Source: a virus
Lineage: Duplodnaviria > Heunggongvirae > Uroviricota > Caudoviricetes
Virus record (IMG/VR): IMGVR_UViG_2671180892_000010
Reading direction: 5' to 3' (one strand)
Length of the DNA stretch: 38,640 nt
Shown here: piece after piece, positions 28,774 to 34,076 of the stretch
How the letters are laid out: every line of letters starts with the position of its first letter
Position numbering within the stretch: the first letter of the stretch is position 1
Notes under the pieces: model-generated
What the model saw: only the letters and a program-made list of their open reading frames with translations
Database searches by the model: none
What the model was told of the DNA's origin: nothing
Made by a program: the position numbers and the translations under genes

Positions 28774-29163
28774 TCAGGCGGCTGCACCCGCCGGTTTCTC
28801 ATACTTACTGATAGTGATCTCGACCTTCCCTTTCTGGATAACCGGTCCCCACTCCACCAGCATTCTTTTCACCTGGCTGTCGTCTTCCCACACCCCCGCG
28901 TGGGTCAGGGCGTCAAACAGCGCCTTGTTATAGTTGTCCAGATCGCGGATCCGGTTATCCGGAGGAAACAACACGATCTCCACTGAAGCAGGTGCCGACG
29001 TTGGTTTTGGCAGACGACGTAACTGCTCAACTATTGCTGCGCACGCCGCGCTCTGGAATTTGCGCCCCGCCGCGCTTATCAGGCTTTTACCAGCAAACGC
29101 CCCTTTATTAGGGTGTCGCCAGTACGTATTCACGCTGGGCGGGAAAGGTAGGATCAGTTTCAT
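28774..29163 (-). CDS. rusA: Holliday junction resolvase RusA
   Basis: 129 aa, MKLILPFPPSVNTYWRHPNKG... ...DLDNYNKALFDALTHAGVWEDDSQV..., RusA family. Confidence 0.88.
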   Translation of the reverse strand: MKLILPFPPSVNTYWRHPNKGAFAGKSLISAAGRKFQSAACAAIVEQLRRLPKPTSAPASVEIVLFPPDNRIRDLDNYNKALFDALTHAGVWEDDSQVKRMLVEWGPVIQKGKVEITISKYEKPAGAAA

Positions 29164-29486: not shown

Positions 29487-30136
29487 GCCGCCATCTCCCT
29501 GACCAGTTTTTCCGCCTGCTGGCGAACCTGCACCAGAAAGGCTTCACCACATGCCTCAAGTTCATCGCGCCCGATGTAGCTGATTGCCGGTCCCTTCCAG
29601 GTCTTGTCGAAAACAGCAATAGCACCAGCGAAGAAAGCGCCTGTCGGCACCTGCTTCTCATCCTTCGGGATAAACCAGGCAGGCAGTTCAAAACCAATAC
29701 GCCCGCGAATAAAAGCAATATGGTCCGCATCTTCCGGCCACCACACTTCGCTGGTGGCAGCTTTGATCAGGAAAACATAGCGCCCGCCCTTATCACGCAT
29801 GGCACTGGCATGTTTCATGATGTAACGCATGCCGGTGATGTATTGCCCCTCATGCTGACTGGCGCGGCTGTATGGGGGATTACCAAAGGCAGCACCTTTA
29901 AGCTCCGCAAGACGTTCTGACCAGTCATGCGCCAGCGCGTTATCTTCCGCCGTGTAATACGCGGCACATTTGGCGTTATCACCGTCAGTAAACAGATCCA
30001 GAACAAACGGGCCAAACAGGGTGTTAATTCCCCAGAAAATGTTGTCCGGCGTGCGCCACTGATCGCCCACTTCCTTCAGTTCATGGGCTGGTTTGTTCCG
30101 CAGTTCCACCAGCGCCTGGCAATATTTATTACTCAT
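29483..30136 (-). CDS. phage Dam-type N6-adenine DNA methyltransferase
   Basis: NPPY catalytic motif (AFGNPPYS); start MSNKYCQALVELRNKPAHELKEVGDQWRTPD... Confidence 0.8.
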   Translation of the reverse strand: MSNKYCQALVELRNKPAHELKEVGDQWRTPDNIFWGINTLFGPFVLDLFTDGDNAKCAAYYTAEDNALAHDWSERLAELKGAAFGNPPYSRASQHEGQYITGMRYIMKHASAMRDKGGRYVFLIKAATSEVWWPEDADHIAFIRGRIGFELPAWFIPKDEKQVPTGAFFAGAIAVFDKTWKGPAISYIGRDELEACGEAFLVQVRQQAEKLVREMAA

Positions 30137-30630
30137 TAAGCCCCCACGTAATTCCCTGACAGATACCACTCTTCACCCGATGCAGCGCGCTTGCTGCTTT
30201 TCCGTAAGCACCGCTCACGACGCGCCAGAAAATTGTTTCGTTCTGGCTGGGAGTGGCTTTCACGGAATGCCGCCATCCACACGGTTGCAGCACGACGGTA
30301 TAAGCCCCTGAACTCCAGTTCTTCAGCCTGGCGGGTCAGGCACAAAATCACCCGTGGATCGTTAGTGCCGACATAGAAATTGCGCACAGGTCTGGTTTCT
30401 CGAACTGGTTGTGGTTCCGGTTCCTGCGCTCTCTCAGTCAGGCGCGGGAAATGTCTGCGTGTATCTCCTTCACAACGGTGAGCCACACGCCCACTCTGAC
30501 GTAACTTGCTTGCTGACTGCAGAACGCGCTGCCGTGAGTAACCTGCAAAAGCATCCGCAATGTCTCCGGAAGTACACCCCGGATGGGCTTCAATGAATTT
30601 CTGAACTTCATTCAAAAGACTCATGATCAC
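30136..30630 (-). CDS. PerC-family putative transcriptional regulator
   Basis: C-terminal ...AEELEFRGLYRRAATVWMAAF... resembles the PerC signature; 164 aa, the same size as K-12 YfdN as far as recalled. Confidence 0.45.
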   Translation of the reverse strand: MIMSLLNEVQKFIEAHPGCTSGDIADAFAGYSRQRVLQSASKLRQSGRVAHRCEGDTRRHFPRLTERAQEPEPQPVRETRPVRNFYVGTNDPRVILCLTRQAEELEFRGLYRRAATVWMAAFRESHSQPERNNFLARRERCLRKSSKRAASGEEWYLSGNYVGA

Positions 30631-31457
30631 CCCCTGAATCCTGCCGGGATCTGGCTGTAGTCCACGTTGTCGTAACTGGCTTTGAAGTACGGGTCCTCGC
30701 GTCTGGCTGCAGATACCGCAGGAACTTCCCAGGATTCTTCGAAATGACGATCCGGACCAAAGAACGTGACAGCCTGTTTCACAAATTGTGTGCCGCTGTT
30801 ACCCATCGCAGATACCCAGCCCGCGTAGCGTTTCACACCTTCCAGCATGGTTTCGGGTTTTACCCCCTCATTCAAACGAGCTTTCCAGGCTTTGAAGGCT
30901 GCAGATTTTGAATTGCCACCAGCACGTTTGGGGTATGCCAGCCATGCCTGCTCAAACTCCGGAGAGTATTCCGGTCGGTTTGAACGAACTCGCACGGACT
31001 CATCAGCAGATGCACCAACAGCTATTGGTTCATTGACTGGTTCTTTGACTGGTTCTTTGACTGGTTCAAAAGAGTGACTGGTTCTGGGTGAATCTCCTGC
31101 ACCACCCCCTGGTGCAACTCCTGCACTACCTGGTGAATTTGCTGCACCAGATAGTGAATTATTTGCACTACCCCCTAGTGAATCTCCTGCACCATCAAGA
31201 TGAAGGAGATAGATATTACTTGAGTTACCTTTTTCACCTTTCCGGGTGACTTTTTTTACCAGCCCGGAATCACAAAGGGCCGCAATATGATTCATCACAG
31301 AACGTTTGCTAATCTCGCACTGGTCAGCAATATGCTGGTAGCTGGGCCAGCACTCGCCCTGATCGCTGGCATTATCAGCCAGCTTGATCAGAACCAGTTT
31401 TCGCAATGGATTACCCACTCGAATTTTCATCGCTTTAACCATCAGCTCCATACTCAT
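30627..31457 (-). CDS. putative replication initiation protein (N-terminal winged helix, low-complexity linker, C-terminal domain)
   Basis: N-terminal ...LRKLVLIKLADNASDQGECWPSYQHIADQCEISKRSVMNHIAALCDSGLVKKV... helix-turn-helix; iteron-like DNA repeats lie inside the gene. Confidence 0.6.
   Translation of the reverse strand: MSMELMVKAMKIRVGNPLRKLVLIKLADNASDQGECWPSYQHIADQCEISKRSVMNHIAALCDSGLVKKVTRKGEKGNSSNIYLLHLDGAGDSLGGSANNSLSGAANSPGSAGVAPGGGAGDSPRTSHSFEPVKEPVKEPVNEPIAVGASADESVRVRSNRPEYSPEFEQAWLAYPKRAGGNSKSAAFKAWKARLNEGVKPETMLEGVKRYAGWVSAMGNSGTQFVKQAVTFFGPDRHFEESWEVPAVSAARREDPYFKASYDNVDYSQIPAGFRG
31030..31200. repeat. iteron-like tandem repeats inside the replication gene (candidate ori)
   Basis: Four 12-bp units (TTGACTGGTTC) from 31033 to 31084, then five ~21-bp units (GTGAAT...TGCAC...) to 31196, followed by an AT-rich stretch to about 31260. 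Confidence 0.5.
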
Positions 31458-31690
31458 GCTGCACCTCCGAGATGCTTCATGTTTTTTCCGGAGCGAAAGG
31501 CTATAAGCGGCATACTGACGCGGTAATTACGGCCCAGCGGTTCACAAATCACCTTCTGACATTCACGGTCAACCAGGCTGACACGTAGAACATGCCCTGC
31601 TGGCGTGGTGTACCACTGCCCAACTGTGGGTGTTGATATTTTTTTACGCTGAAATAAACGGTAAATGTTGAGGAGCAACGGATTAAGCAT
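31454..31690 (-). CDS. hypothetical protein, 78 aa
   Basis: ORF with start and stop overlapping both neighbours; no recognisable motifs. Confidence 0.4.
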   Translation of the reverse strand: MLNPLLLNIYRLFQRKKISTPTVGQWYTTPAGHVLRVSLVDRECQKVICEPLGRNYRVSMPLIAFRSGKNMKHLGGAA

Positions 31691-32519
31691 GACGATGCCC
31701 TCCGCTGATATTCAGGAGACGGTGAATATGAAAATTAGCCTTATCCGCCAGACGAATACGTTCAGCTTGCAAGTTAAGAAGGGTTTCTACCAGAACCTGA
31801 TGTGCCTGCGGATCCGAAAGAGTTACCTTGCGCAGAGCACGTAGTGCAGTTGTTACATAACTGAGTTTATGTAAGTCTTCATCATTCAGACGAGTGAGGG
31901 CTGGGACAGTAGCCATGATGGCAGCCTCCTTGATCGGTGAAATACTTCCACCACCGGAAACGCCAATTTCGCTGGTGGTGAACTGAACGGGGTTGGCGTA
32001 ACCGGTGATCAAGGAAACCGGCGCATCTTTCGATGCCCCCGCCCAGCCCACCATAACTTTGATGTGAGCAAATGCGGACGATAAAAAAGACGCTGGCGCG
32101 TCATATATCGCCTTGATCAATTCCAGGACGCCAATCCCGGCACCCGCTTTATAAGGTGCCTGAACAGTGTAACGTCCCGGAATGGCAGAATCAATGTGCT
32201 GGTGGTCCTTCACACTCAACAAAATCACGCCTGAATTTCCACAAAGGACTAAAGCACTCATGCGGGTAGTCTTTGCGAAGATAGATAACGCGCTGTGTTT
32301 CTGGCTCCCAACGAATAACATGAACATAAAGTCCTCTTCCGTCACGAAACCAGCGGTTAAGTTCCTGCACAACTCGCCCCCCACAGTCAGGTAAAGTTCT
32401 CTGTGGTTACTTACAGCCAGGTGATTTGGTAATCTGCATTCATGCCGTAACAACAGGTGTTCAGCGACGCTGACCACCAGCTGTTGCGACAAACGGTTAT
32501 TTGCCGTTAAACTGTTCAT
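31683..32519 (-). CDS. hypothetical protein, 278 aa, unknown function
   Basis: ATGA overlap with the upstream gene; Gly-rich segments (VLCGNSGVILLS, GAGIGVLELI, GVSGGGSIS) but no Walker A motif or other recognised catalytic motif. Confidence 0.5.
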   Translation of the reverse strand: MNSLTANNRLSQQLVVSVAEHLLLRHECRLPNHLAVSNHRELYLTVGGELCRNLTAGFVTEEDFMFMLFVGSQKHSALSIFAKTTRMSALVLCGNSGVILLSVKDHQHIDSAIPGRYTVQAPYKAGAGIGVLELIKAIYDAPASFLSSAFAHIKVMVGWAGASKDAPVSLITGYANPVQFTTSEIGVSGGGSISPIKEAAIMATVPALTRLNDEDLHKLSYVTTALRALRKVTLSDPQAHQVLVETLLNLQAERIRLADKANFHIHRLLNISGGHRHA

Positions 32520-33079
32520 GCGTTAGTTTCTCCACAGACACAAAACGCCACGACGCCCGGAGCTGCACACTCGCGGGCGTCACTCTTTTCTGGAGCGCAA
32601 AAGATTTTGTAGACCAGTGCTGCATGCTCCTGGAGCTTCGAAATTGACAGATACAACTCATCATTAATTGCTGTCTGCTCGTGTGGCTCCACTACCCCAT
32701 CTTCGATTGCCGAACGAATCTGCTTTGAGTAACTCCCGATCTGTTCGATGACTTCCAGCAGGCGCTGGTTTATATCGGCGTTCTCTACTTCCTCAATTTC
32801 AGGAAGCGATACAAACACCCCACCAGCAGACTGTGCGACAGCATCCGCAATGTAGTGAGTGCCAGCCGCGCGCTGTAAAATCATTGCCCATCCCAGCGGG
32901 AAAATCTGATCGCCATCTGCACGAAGGCGGTTGAATAAAGCGTTCTCTGTTACATCCAGCCACTCAGCAGCTTCAGCGTAACCCCCCGGCAACGCCGCGA
33001 TAGTTTTTCTGACAGCTTTCACGTACCACTCAGGCTGTTTTTCTACTTTCCAGTGATGCTTACCCACGGTTAGCCTCAT
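32516..33079 (-). CDS. hypothetical protein, 187 aa, in the cII slot (possible YdaT-like regulator)
   Basis: First gene after cro; assigned by position only, sequence not confidently matched to any family. Confidence 0.45.
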   Translation of the reverse strand: MRLTVGKHHWKVEKQPEWYVKAVRKTIAALPGGYAEAAEWLDVTENALFNRLRADGDQIFPLGWAMILQRAAGTHYIADAVAQSAGGVFVSLPEIEEVENADINQRLLEVIEQIGSYSKQIRSAIEDGVVEPHEQTAINDELYLSISKLQEHAALVYKIFCAPEKSDARECAAPGVVAFCVCGETNA

Positions 33080-33401: not shown

Positions 33402-34076
33402 ATGAAAACAGTCCATGACATCCGGCGGTCTAACGCCAGAAAACTGAGAGATGGTGTTGGCGGGAATTCTTCCTTTGCCACCATGATTGATCGCGAGCCA
33501 ACCCAGACCAGCAGGTTTATGGGAGATGGTGCTACTAAAAATATCGGTGACAGCATGGCACGGCACATCGAAAAATGTTTCGACCTGCCTGTCGGATGGC
33601 TTGATCAAGAACACCAGACAACAAACATCACAAAAAAACCTGATGTTTCAATTACTAACAAACAAATAACGTTAGTCCCTGTCATATCATGGGTACAGGC
33701 CGGAGCATGGAAAGAAGTTGGCTATTCTGAGGTTGATTTGAGCACAGCAGAAACTTATCCCTGCCCTGTACCCTGTGGCGAAATGACTTATATCTTGCGG
33801 GTGATTGGTGATTCAATGATTGATGAGTACCGCCCGGGAGACATGATTTTTGTAGATCCTGAAGTCCCTGCCTGCCACGGTGACGACGTTATTGCATTGA
33901 TGCACGATACAGGCGAAACCACCTTTAAGCGGTTGATAGAAGATGGAACACAGCGTTACCTCAAAGCATTAAACCCAAACTGGCCTGAACCTTACATTAA
34001 GATCAACGGTAATTGCTCTATAATTGGCACAGTAATTTTCTCAGGAAAACCAAGAAGATACAAAATAAAGGCCTAA
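33402..34076 (+). CDS. cI: CI-like prophage repressor (helix-turn-helix plus S24 LexA-like peptidase domain)
   Basis: 224 aa; C-terminal ...LRVIGDSMIDEYRPGDMIFVDPEVP... autocleavage domain; divergent from cro. Confidence 0.88.
   Translation: MKTVHDIRRSNARKLRDGVGGNSSFATMIDREPTQTSRFMGDGATKNIGDSMARHIEKCFDLPVGWLDQEHQTTNITKKPDVSITNKQITLVPVISWVQAGAWKEVGYSEVDLSTAETYPCPVPCGEMTYILRVIGDSMIDEYRPGDMIFVDPEVPACHGDDVIALMHDTGETTFKRLIEDGTQRYLKALNPNWPEPYIKINGNCSIIGTVIFSGKPRRYKIKA

Follow-up and report, generated by a model that had tools for sequence, protein, structure and literature searches.

A candidate lambda-type replication origin within the linker-coding region of an HTH_36 initiator gene in an SfV-like lambdoid prophage

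In phage lambda, as in the Shiga toxin (Stx) phages 933W and P27, the origin of replication is embedded midway along the initiator gene (O in lambda), between the parts encoding the DNA-binding N-terminal and the partner-recruiting C-terminal domain, and contains four to six dyad-symmetric iterons about two helical turns apart. Here we describe a similarly built locus in IMG/VR record IMGVR_UViG_2671180892_000010, a 38,640-nt stretch of Caudoviricetes DNA (the window) that represents a lambdoid prophage related to SfV, mEp460 and the Stx2c phages. Its positions 31022–31192, within initiator-gene sequence coding for a predicted disordered linker, very likely form the phage's lambda-type replication origin, as judged from sequence comparison; the rival explanations weighed below are, even taken jointly, unlikely.

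The four lambda iterons, inside O at 39034–39118 (starts at 39034, 39054, 39078 and 39101; spacings 20, 24 and 23), are likewise not in one reading frame, and O, like the initiator gene of the window, is transcribed from the early-right operon. In lambdoid phages, iterons are type-specific and the part downstream of them is conserved. The segment downstream in the gene direction is more A+T-rich in lambda, as it is, to a moderate degree, in the window. For lambda, the AT tract and the two iterons closest to it make up the minimal unwinding unit, and O binds AT-rich single-stranded DNA (ssDNA) (PMC7466680). The lambda parallel, drawn already in a preliminary description made from the letters of the window, thus stands up to comparison with the lambda coordinates. 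Lambda nevertheless differs in several respects: its O protein is not homologous to the window's initiator, and the iteron sequences are unrelated; it has an AT tract of ~40 bp and ~80% AT, whereas the window has a sequence-invariant GAACCAGTCA direct-repeat element with a GC content of ~0.42; and it has a P gene, whereas no P-like gene follows the initiator in the window's phage.

Gene 18 of phage P22 carries four ~20-bp repeats and that of phage L six 11-bp repeats (PMC8022706). As in the window, these iterons are located inside the sequence that codes for the origin-binding protein, and they differ from phage to phage – and the origin assignment in phage L is likewise only predicted – but the proteins belong to the lambda-O/gp18 group, are paired with the DnaB-type helicase gp12, and have repeats of other sequences and lengths. 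Iteron plasmids (RK2 oriV/TrfA, F/RepE, R6K/pi) resemble the window in their winged-helix initiators and ~17–22-bp direct repeats; the DNA unwinding elements (DUEs) next to these consist of short direct repeats, 13-mers whose exact sequence is required and of which Rep contacts a single strand, as ssDNA (PMC4081077). By analogy, these 13-mers appear to be the best counterpart of the GAACCAGTCA 12-mers. However, plasmid Rep proteins have two winged-helix domains, in contrast to the single predicted one and the all-helical C-terminal domain of the window's initiator, and plasmid origins are intergenic and usually contain DnaA boxes, whereas the candidate origin described here is translated and has none.

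Iterons inside an initiator gene are of the textbook kind known from lambda, P22 and L; the notable addition is a 34-nt core frozen at synonymous sites across Gammaproteobacteria. HTH_36 proteins encoded near cI have been described in Eru5, 6, 8, 11 and 13 Shiga toxin phages (PMC8951638), and the papers classifying these 'Eru' replication proteins treat gene content only, with no occurrence of 'iteron' or 'origin of replication'. In GenBank, the SfV record marks operators, terminators and promoter hexamers, and no origin in orf39. A full-text literature search found no description of this origin, which is not proof of absence.

Two repeat families in an initiator gene

Repeats were located with Tandem Repeats Finder (TRF) and then by exact-pattern scans of the window. 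The features concerned are as follows, with protein positions in amino acids (aa):

30627–31457, minus strand: replication initiator gene, 276 aa (open reading frame (ORF) call; Pfam and PHROG matches; AlphaFold domains)
31194–31457, minus: region coding for the N-terminal winged-helix domain, aa 1–88 (AlphaFold confidence, pLDDT, 80–94)
31197–31260, minus: AT-rich stretch of the preliminary description, coding for the wing of the winged helix, KKVTRKGEKGNSSNIYLLHLD
31178–31192, minus: iteron 1 core GTGCAGGAGATTCAC, exact match to GTGCA-N5-TKCAC
31154–31168, minus: iteron 2 core GTGCAAATAATTCAC, exact match, 24 nt past iteron 1
31133–31147, minus: iteron 3 core GTGCAGCAAATTCAC, exact match, 21 nt past iteron 2
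31112–31126, minus: iteron 4 core GTGCAGGAGTTGCAC, exact match on both strands, 21 nt past iteron 3
31088–31102, minus: iteron 5 core GTGCAGGAGATTCAC, exact match, 24 nt past iteron 4, abutting the invariant element
31053–31087, minus: putative family-invariant origin core CC-AGAACCAGTCAC-TCTTT-TGAACCAGTCAA-A-GAA, conserved in homologues
31022–31067, minus: tandem 12-mer array, three copies of GAACCAGTCAAA plus degenerate GAACCAATAG (TRF, exact scan)
30630–30971, minus: region coding for the C-terminal domain, aa 163–276 (AlphaFold helices at 166–224)

Both repeat families named in the preliminary description are real and lie inside this ORF, where they occupy gene nt 265–435 and encode aa ~89–145, between the winged helix and the C-terminal domain. 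TRF reports the longer units at 31088–31192 (period 24, 4.6 copies, score 70), with a period-21 sub-array at 31121–31172, and the shorter ones at 31026–31068 (period 12, 3.6 copies, 93% matches, score 72). The pattern GTGCA-N5-TKCAC has exactly five matches in the window, all 15-bp dyad cores, spaced 24-21-21-24 bp; in iteron 4, the dyad made by the half-sites GTGCA and TGCAC is perfect. With one mismatch allowed, the window contains 19 matches against 7.8 expected, a number that no shuffle attains.

The word GAACCAGTCA occurs in four exact copies on the minus strand (31075–31084, 31058–31067, 31046–31055 and 31034–31043, spaced 17, 12 and 12 nt in the gene direction), with a degenerate fifth copy, GAACCAATAG, at 31022–31031. 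The 'four 12-bp units' described earlier therefore need correction: they comprise three tandem copies and one copy of the core that stands 17 nt away and falls in a different reading frame. Neither GAACCAGTCA nor GTGCA-N5-TKCAC matches exactly anywhere else in the 38.6-kb window. The invariant element, which comes after the last iteron, spans ~34 nt and can be written as CCCAGAACCAGTCAC-N5-GAACCAGTCAAnGAA, or as AGAACCAGTCAC...GAACCAGTCAA. The two families also differ in their roles, which had not been separated before: the iterons are type-specific, and the 12-mer element is the invariant core.

By its family and its genomic context, the host gene is a replication initiator, as had been supposed. 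The protein matches PHROG 270 (phrog_270), 'replication initiation protein', over aa 3–275 (E = 1.7e-88) and Pfam HTH_36 (PF13730) over aa 17–67 (E = 2.9e-11; 43.4 bits, cut-off 25); the gene belongs to the early-right operon, and loader genes follow its relatives. AlphaFold predicts an N-terminal winged helix (helices 3–11, 17–29, 40–47 and 51–64; strands 67–73 and 79–85), a linker at aa 91–162 that is disordered (pLDDT ~30), and a C-terminal helical domain. The repeats encode this low-complexity linker, including the peptides quoted in the preliminary description, and because it is predicted to be disordered, coding constraint there should be weak. The winged helix, with its recognition-helix region at aa ~50–64 (SKRSVMNHIAALCDS), is the presumed reader of the iterons, and the C-terminal domain is presumed to recruit a helicase or loader. 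Further PHROG matches of the C-terminal region are labelled 'DnaD-like helicase loader' and 'primosomal protein'; NCBIfam and Pfam give nothing for this domain even at relaxed thresholds, so that its sole labels come from PHROG and from plasmid annotations such as YdaU/DUF1376 or 'replisome organizer'.

The PDB, searched by sequence, has no match to the initiator, and Foldseek gave generic winged-helix matches only (E > 0.02). Two assignments were rejected. A DnaD-like initiator is not supported, as Pfam DnaD_N (PF21984) scores 23.1 bits, under its cut-off of 27, and the Foldseek match to DnaD-N (2v79; E = 0.05) reflects merely generic winged-helix likeness. Homology to lambda O fails as well: the initiator has no PF04492 match at E <= 0.01, against 5.7e-36 for lambda O itself, and an Hhalign profile comparison with lambda O gives a probability of 1.4%.

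Repeat DNA and encoded peptide across homologues

For comparison, 80 diverse genomic homologues were gathered by peptide patterns outside the linker, together with 80 near-identical viral contigs; codon, spacing and correlation statistics refer to 71 non-redundant genes from many gammaproteobacterial genera. Almost every homologue has two to seven tandem units of 21–24 nt at the same position in the gene. Spacings of 21 nt (83 cases) and 24 nt (70) predominate, but 22 nt (28) and 23 nt (20) are also frequent, and 29 of the 71 genes have at least one spacing – 22, 23 or 25 nt – that is not a multiple of three; one DNA word is thereby read in more than one frame. In the iteron class of the window (28 non-redundant genes), 113 units read G/S-A-x-x-S-P and 23 read V-Q-x-I-H-Q, with more than one frame used in 23 of the 28 genes. 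The pairing of a 23-nt with a 22-nt spacing restores the frame, which indicates that helix phasing is kept and the peptide is not. The consensus of the 136 units, T(A/G)GTGCAgcagnT(G/T)CACCa, is in part circular, since eight of its positions served to find the units. With few exceptions the final spacing is 24 nt, and the final unit stands at a fixed distance from the invariant element.

This element, CCC AGA ACC AGT CAC TCT TTx GAA CCA GTC Axx GAA, is found at that fixed distance past the last repeat in 78 of 79 homologues. Its hosts include Escherichia, Pseudomonas, Shewanella, Marinomonas, Aeromonas and Xenorhabdus, and it is also present in Vibrio phage D160. Synonymous variation is absent from the 12-mer element in the 71-gene set, where codon use is as follows:

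Arg AGA: 67/67
Ser AGT: 70/70
Ser TCT: 66/66
Pro CCC: 51/51
Thr ACC: 52/52
Glu GAA: 70/70
Pro CCA: 57/60
Val GTC: 65/68

The N-terminal domains of the same genes are saturated with synonymous change: invariant residues use four to six codons, with entropies of 1.5–2.5 bits (R72, 2.5 bits; S39, 2.4 bits; E35, 70% GAG). Since synonymous sites are frozen across such hosts, selection on the nucleic acid is the only explanation, and the homologue comparison shows that it acts on the repeat DNA and not on the encoded peptide. Some homologues have a further GAACCAGTC-like word, at gene nt 230, which was dismissed as a coding coincidence, since its synonymous sites do vary.

It is very improbable, then, that the array is only a coding repeat, that is, a low-complexity linker grown by replication slippage in DNA without any cis function. 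Such slippage would fit the polymorphic copy number, with length steps of 12, 21 and 24 nt between alleles (match lengths of 277, 289, 301 and 313, proteins of 242 to 302 aa, three to five 12-mers), and the predicted disorder of the encoded segment. Yet one DNA word yields different peptides wherever spacings of 22, 23 or 25 nt occur, and this is visible within the window itself, where GAACCAGTCA copy 1 (31075–31084) is read as R-T-S-H and copy 2 (31058–31067) as E-P-V-K. Moreover, the phasing of the units and their distance to the element are conserved, and no synonymous variation is seen across genera of widely differing GC content. The frame and synonymous-site data, as read from these alignments, already contradict a purely coding repeat.

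Repeat number had been proposed as a point of comparison between related prophages, and it proves largely stable: five iterons spaced 24-21-21-24 are constant in 78 of 81 close relatives, and the GAACCAGTCA core is present three times in 76 of these genes, four times in four (the window and three other loci) and five times in one. The 12-mer array of the window is therefore one unit above the common allele and is an expansion of the second GAACCAGTCA copy.

The least probable of the alternatives, to which we give hardly any credence, is that an overlapping gene or an mRNA element (a structure or recoding signal) underlies the conservation in place of a DNA site. There are alternative-frame ORFs at 31022–31168 (minus strand, 48 aa) and 31088–31249 (plus strand, 53 aa), and two homologues, L118 (Pseudomonas bharatica) and L119 (Erwinia rhapontici), are frame-broken within the array, both of which an overlapping gene or mRNA element would accommodate. 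The changes of frame between units would, however, break a second ORF, whereas the main ORF compensates for them (23 + 22 = 45); the predicted RNA fold of 31015–31200 is unremarkable (z = -1.0) and leaves the 12-mers unpaired; and Rfam yields nothing reaching threshold. TTGACT words in the array do resemble -35 boxes, but a promoter there was rejected because no promoter-like site was found.

As to L118 and L119, translation past the break enters the alternative frame and continues as …VVQELHPEPVTLLNQ to a stop, although the GAACCAGTCA element and the repeats persist as DNA in both; prophage decay or faulty assembly may explain them.

Iteron types, recognition helices and natural mosaics

Each type of recognition helix (aa 50–64) has its own iteron core:

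Helix S[KR]RSVMNHI: core GTGCAGGAGATTCAC-like
Helix xRSTVKxHIRELEK: core GGGGCxGCAGATAACC / GGGGCAGGAGCTGCCCC
Helix DRSTVRKHIKQLEAQ: core TGTAGGCCCAGAAAGCAC
Helix SKSAVRxHI: core CCCCTGTGCCGTCAGA
Helix SKRS[VA]MRHI: core GTGACACAGAGTCAC

Across the 71 genes, distances between last iterons correlate with distances between the aa 49–66 segments (Mantel r = 0.58, p ~5e-4), and the partial correlation with aa 1–48 controlled is nearly as high (r = 0.52, p ~5e-4). The alignments thus show co-variation of the iteron core with the recognition-helix region.

Natural mosaics give a second view of the same association. L002 and L003, metagenomic loci of E. coli type, share 95–96% DNA identity with the window over everything between the start of the element and the stop codon, with N-terminal domains and iterons wholly different from those of the window. 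Conversely, Pseudomonas L089 has the window's helix and iterons, its identity stops 50 nt after the anchor, and its C-terminal domain is unrelated. The 'O' gene of the Stx1a phage Stx1_14040 (L165 1048–1956) places the window's C-terminal domain behind an unrelated N-terminal domain, with GGGAAACC-type repeats and then four ACAGAGAATACA 12-mers. Vibrio phages D160 and D96a have a common C-terminal domain and N-terminal domains of different families: D160 is a member of the family described here, with GTGAC..GTCAC iterons and the GAACCAGTCA element, and D96a (L170 1201–2118) belongs to another, with five copies of GGTGACAGAGAGTCAC followed by TCCTAACACTAC 12-mers. The C-terminal domain is therefore exchangeable between initiator families, judging from its occurrence behind unrelated N-terminal domains. 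These mosaics indicate that N-terminal domain, iterons and 12-mer element belong together as a unit, and comparison of the loci shows them to be inherited as a block; by the same comparison, the 12-mers track the N-domain family and not the C-terminal domain.

The two other N-domain families, those of Stx1_14040 and D96a, follow the same grammar: about five family-specific 21–30-bp repeats, two to four direct 12-mers, and the shared C-terminal domain. Among 120 viral-contig matches to the element, no orphan copy without an initiator, which might have marked a satellite, was found; the N-terminal domain lies directly upstream in all 115 testable matches, the other five being cut by the end of their stored sequence.

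The mosaic breakpoints, located at or just past the element (window versus L002/L003, window versus L089/L087, and again in D160/D96a and Stx1_14040), would also suit a recombination junction, the invariant 34-nt element serving the exchange of C-terminal modules while the 21–24-bp units could still be iterons. We consider this improbable. That synonymous change is wholly missing from Escherichia to Pseudomonas, Shewanella and Vibrio calls for purifying selection within each lineage, which a benefit to future recombination would not supply, and the presence of separate 12-mers at this place in other N-domain families speaks for a function linked to the N-terminal domain or the origin and against a universal junction.

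Origin model, operon context and significance

Taken as an origin, the region would work as follows. The five 15-bp dyad cores, phased at 21–24 bp, or about two helical turns, would be iterons to which dimers of the initiator's own winged-helix domain bind on one face of the DNA, forming an 'O-some'-like complex. This complex would stress the adjoining invariant element of ~34 nt, the GAACCAGTCA direct repeats at a fixed distance downstream of the last iteron, which may represent the origin core shared by all members of the initiator family, relatively rich in A+T and expanded here into the 12-mer array. The core would most likely be the site of duplex opening or of contact between initiator and ssDNA, comparable with the AT-rich region of lambda and the 13-mers of plasmids. 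The C-terminal domain would then recruit the DnaB helicase, in relatives through a phage DnaC-like or P-like loader. Since no loader gene is present in the window, its phage presumably uses host DnaC–DnaB.

Base composition bears on where the DNA would open. The AT-rich stretch singled out in the preliminary description exists (GC 0.35 at 31200–31259, the lowest in the initiator gene), but it precedes the iterons, towards the N-terminus, and is coding sequence for the Lys/Asn-rich wing. Averaged over the 71 genes and normalised to each gene's own composition, the AT excess over the wing-coding stretch is +0.07 to +0.09 and falls on Lys, Asn and Tyr codons; the strongest excess in the gene, +0.12 to +0.16 in high-GC and lower-GC hosts alike, coincides with the invariant element and the 12-mers. 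The wing-coding stretch is thus probably outside the origin, contrary to the role first given to it, the AT peak conserved in the family being that of the 12-mer element. This AT-richer element lies downstream of the iterons in the gene direction, as in lambda.

A terminator-like hairpin, TCACCTTTCCGGGTGA then CTTTTTTTAC, at 31234–31249 on the plus strand, with a T-run to 31259, is antisense to the initiator within the wing-coding stretch; it may be a chance occurrence, as shuffles give a similar count of such hairpins (1.3 expected, two found).

Several observations weigh against the proposed origin. The 12-mer region of the window has a GC content of ~0.40–0.45 and is far less AT-rich than the tract of lambda; because the element is only moderately AT-rich here, its role as unwinding site is one that we infer, and the part played by the invariant element is proposed by analogy. 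No DnaA box (TTATCCACA, at most one mismatch) is present within 30627–31457. Population variants encoding proteins of 250 and 242 aa are without most of the iterons, so that either few iterons suffice or these variants are defective prophages. Finally, the homologues are phylogenetically related, and the Mantel permutation p-values are therefore optimistic, overstating their independence. Binding, unwinding and origin activity of the repeat region are predictions from comparative data.

In the window as a whole, DnaA-box-like words by the same definition number 16, against 7.5 expected and with none of 100 shuffles reaching 16; those nearest to the initiator gene are at 28833, 32528 and 33085.

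The lack of a strongly AT-rich tract and of a DnaA box beside the repeats would equally suit sites through which the winged-helix protein regulates – by autoregulation, handcuffing copy control or a transcriptional roadblock – with the origin located elsewhere. Control roles of this kind are known for plasmid iterons. We regard this as the likeliest of the alternatives and still as a poor prospect: past every array, and at a constant distance from it, comes the invariant direct-repeat element that is the AT-richest part of the gene family-wide; the layout of iterons followed by 12-mers recurs in two other N-domain families and matches the proven origin of lambda (PMC7466680); and the iteron pattern has no exact match in the window outside the array. 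The lambda-type origin therefore stays the favoured reading, supported by the frame shifts between units, the frozen synonymous sites, the co-variation with the recognition helix and the exchange as a block, all of which speak for the iteron origin suggested in the preliminary description.

The genomic setting agrees with a replication module. The 1.3 kb around the repeats are 96–99% identical to SfV, mEp460 and Stx2c-phage-like lambdoid phages, and the initiator gene DNA is 97% identical to that of Stx2c-converting phages, SfV and mEp460. The early-right operon is on the minus strand of the window, with the initiator after CII-like and Ash-like genes:

32516–33079, minus: CII-like gene, early-right operon
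31683–32519, minus: Ash-like gene, early-right operon
Between the Ash-like gene and the initiator, minus: ORF of 78 aa, early-right operon
30136–30630, minus: PerC-like gene, directly after the initiator

Beyond the initiator, the operon continues with PerC-like, Dam, LexA-like, RusA and KilA-N genes; no helicase or loader gene follows the initiator in the window, where the PerC-like gene comes next. In relatives, by contrast, the initiator is followed by DnaC/IstB-like or lambda-P-like loader genes: Kosakonia L084, with a C-terminal domain as in the window, encodes a DnaC/IstB-like AAA+ loader directly behind the initiator (L084 2276–3208), and many other relatives also carry a DnaC/IstB-like AAA+ gene at that position. 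The initiator gene is flanked by four-base overlaps of start and stop codons, ATGA with the 78-aa ORF (31454–31457) and GTGA with the PerC-like gene (30627–30630), which suggests translational coupling of the genes around it along the operon.

Two further features of the window stand apart from the replication module. The cI-like repressor gene (33402–34076, plus strand) has a Peptidase_S24 match only (aa 93–212), with no helix-turn-helix (HTH) domain called by Pfam in the first ~90 residues; a clade of Stx-phage CI proteins without an HTH domain has been described (PMC8951638). At 1480–1823 there is a cluster of three short tandem repeats (periods 12, 9 and 15, about two to three copies each), probably belonging to a tail-fibre-like gene.

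The initiator family is also found on plasmids. In the 38-kb circular Arsenophonus nasoniae plasmid paNv_UK9 (L168, 80–3972), a member with both iterons (GGTGACAAAA-type) and the element (GAATCAGTCA/AGAACCAGTCA) adjoins ParM/ParR and then a lambda-P-like gene. Ten Arsenophonus plasmids of 28–104 kb carry this initiator's N-terminal domain and look like phage-plasmids using this replicon.

The family is common: phages with it include SfV, ST64B, mEp460, the cdtI phage and Stx2c-converting phages, and further members come from prophages of Pseudomonas, Shewanella, Vibrio, Aeromonas and others; the repeat segment itself matches 925 of 5,426 complete E. coli genomes. Knowing where the origin lies would give studies of Stx-phage replication and toxin amplification a target that can be tested, and the pairing of helix and iteron core a rule by which origins and incompatibility types could be predicted from sequence. 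The locus is, in addition, a clean case of a cis-acting DNA element dictating the sequence of a protein linker, and its invariant 34-nt core provides a short conserved sequence for asking how an initiator that is neither DnaA nor lambda O opens DNA.

A more tentative idea, which we hold to be possible though not probable, is that the GAACCAGTCA element is a sequence-specific code, read either by the conserved part of the initiator family, as ssDNA while the duplex opens, or by a shared gammaproteobacterial factor. If so, it would be the phage counterpart of the plasmid DUE 13-mers or of DnaA-trios; the linker peptide, with its conserved PRTSHSFEPV, would be a mere passenger dictated by origin DNA; and iterons with family-specific 12-mers would constitute a grammar general to phage origins that lie within initiator genes.

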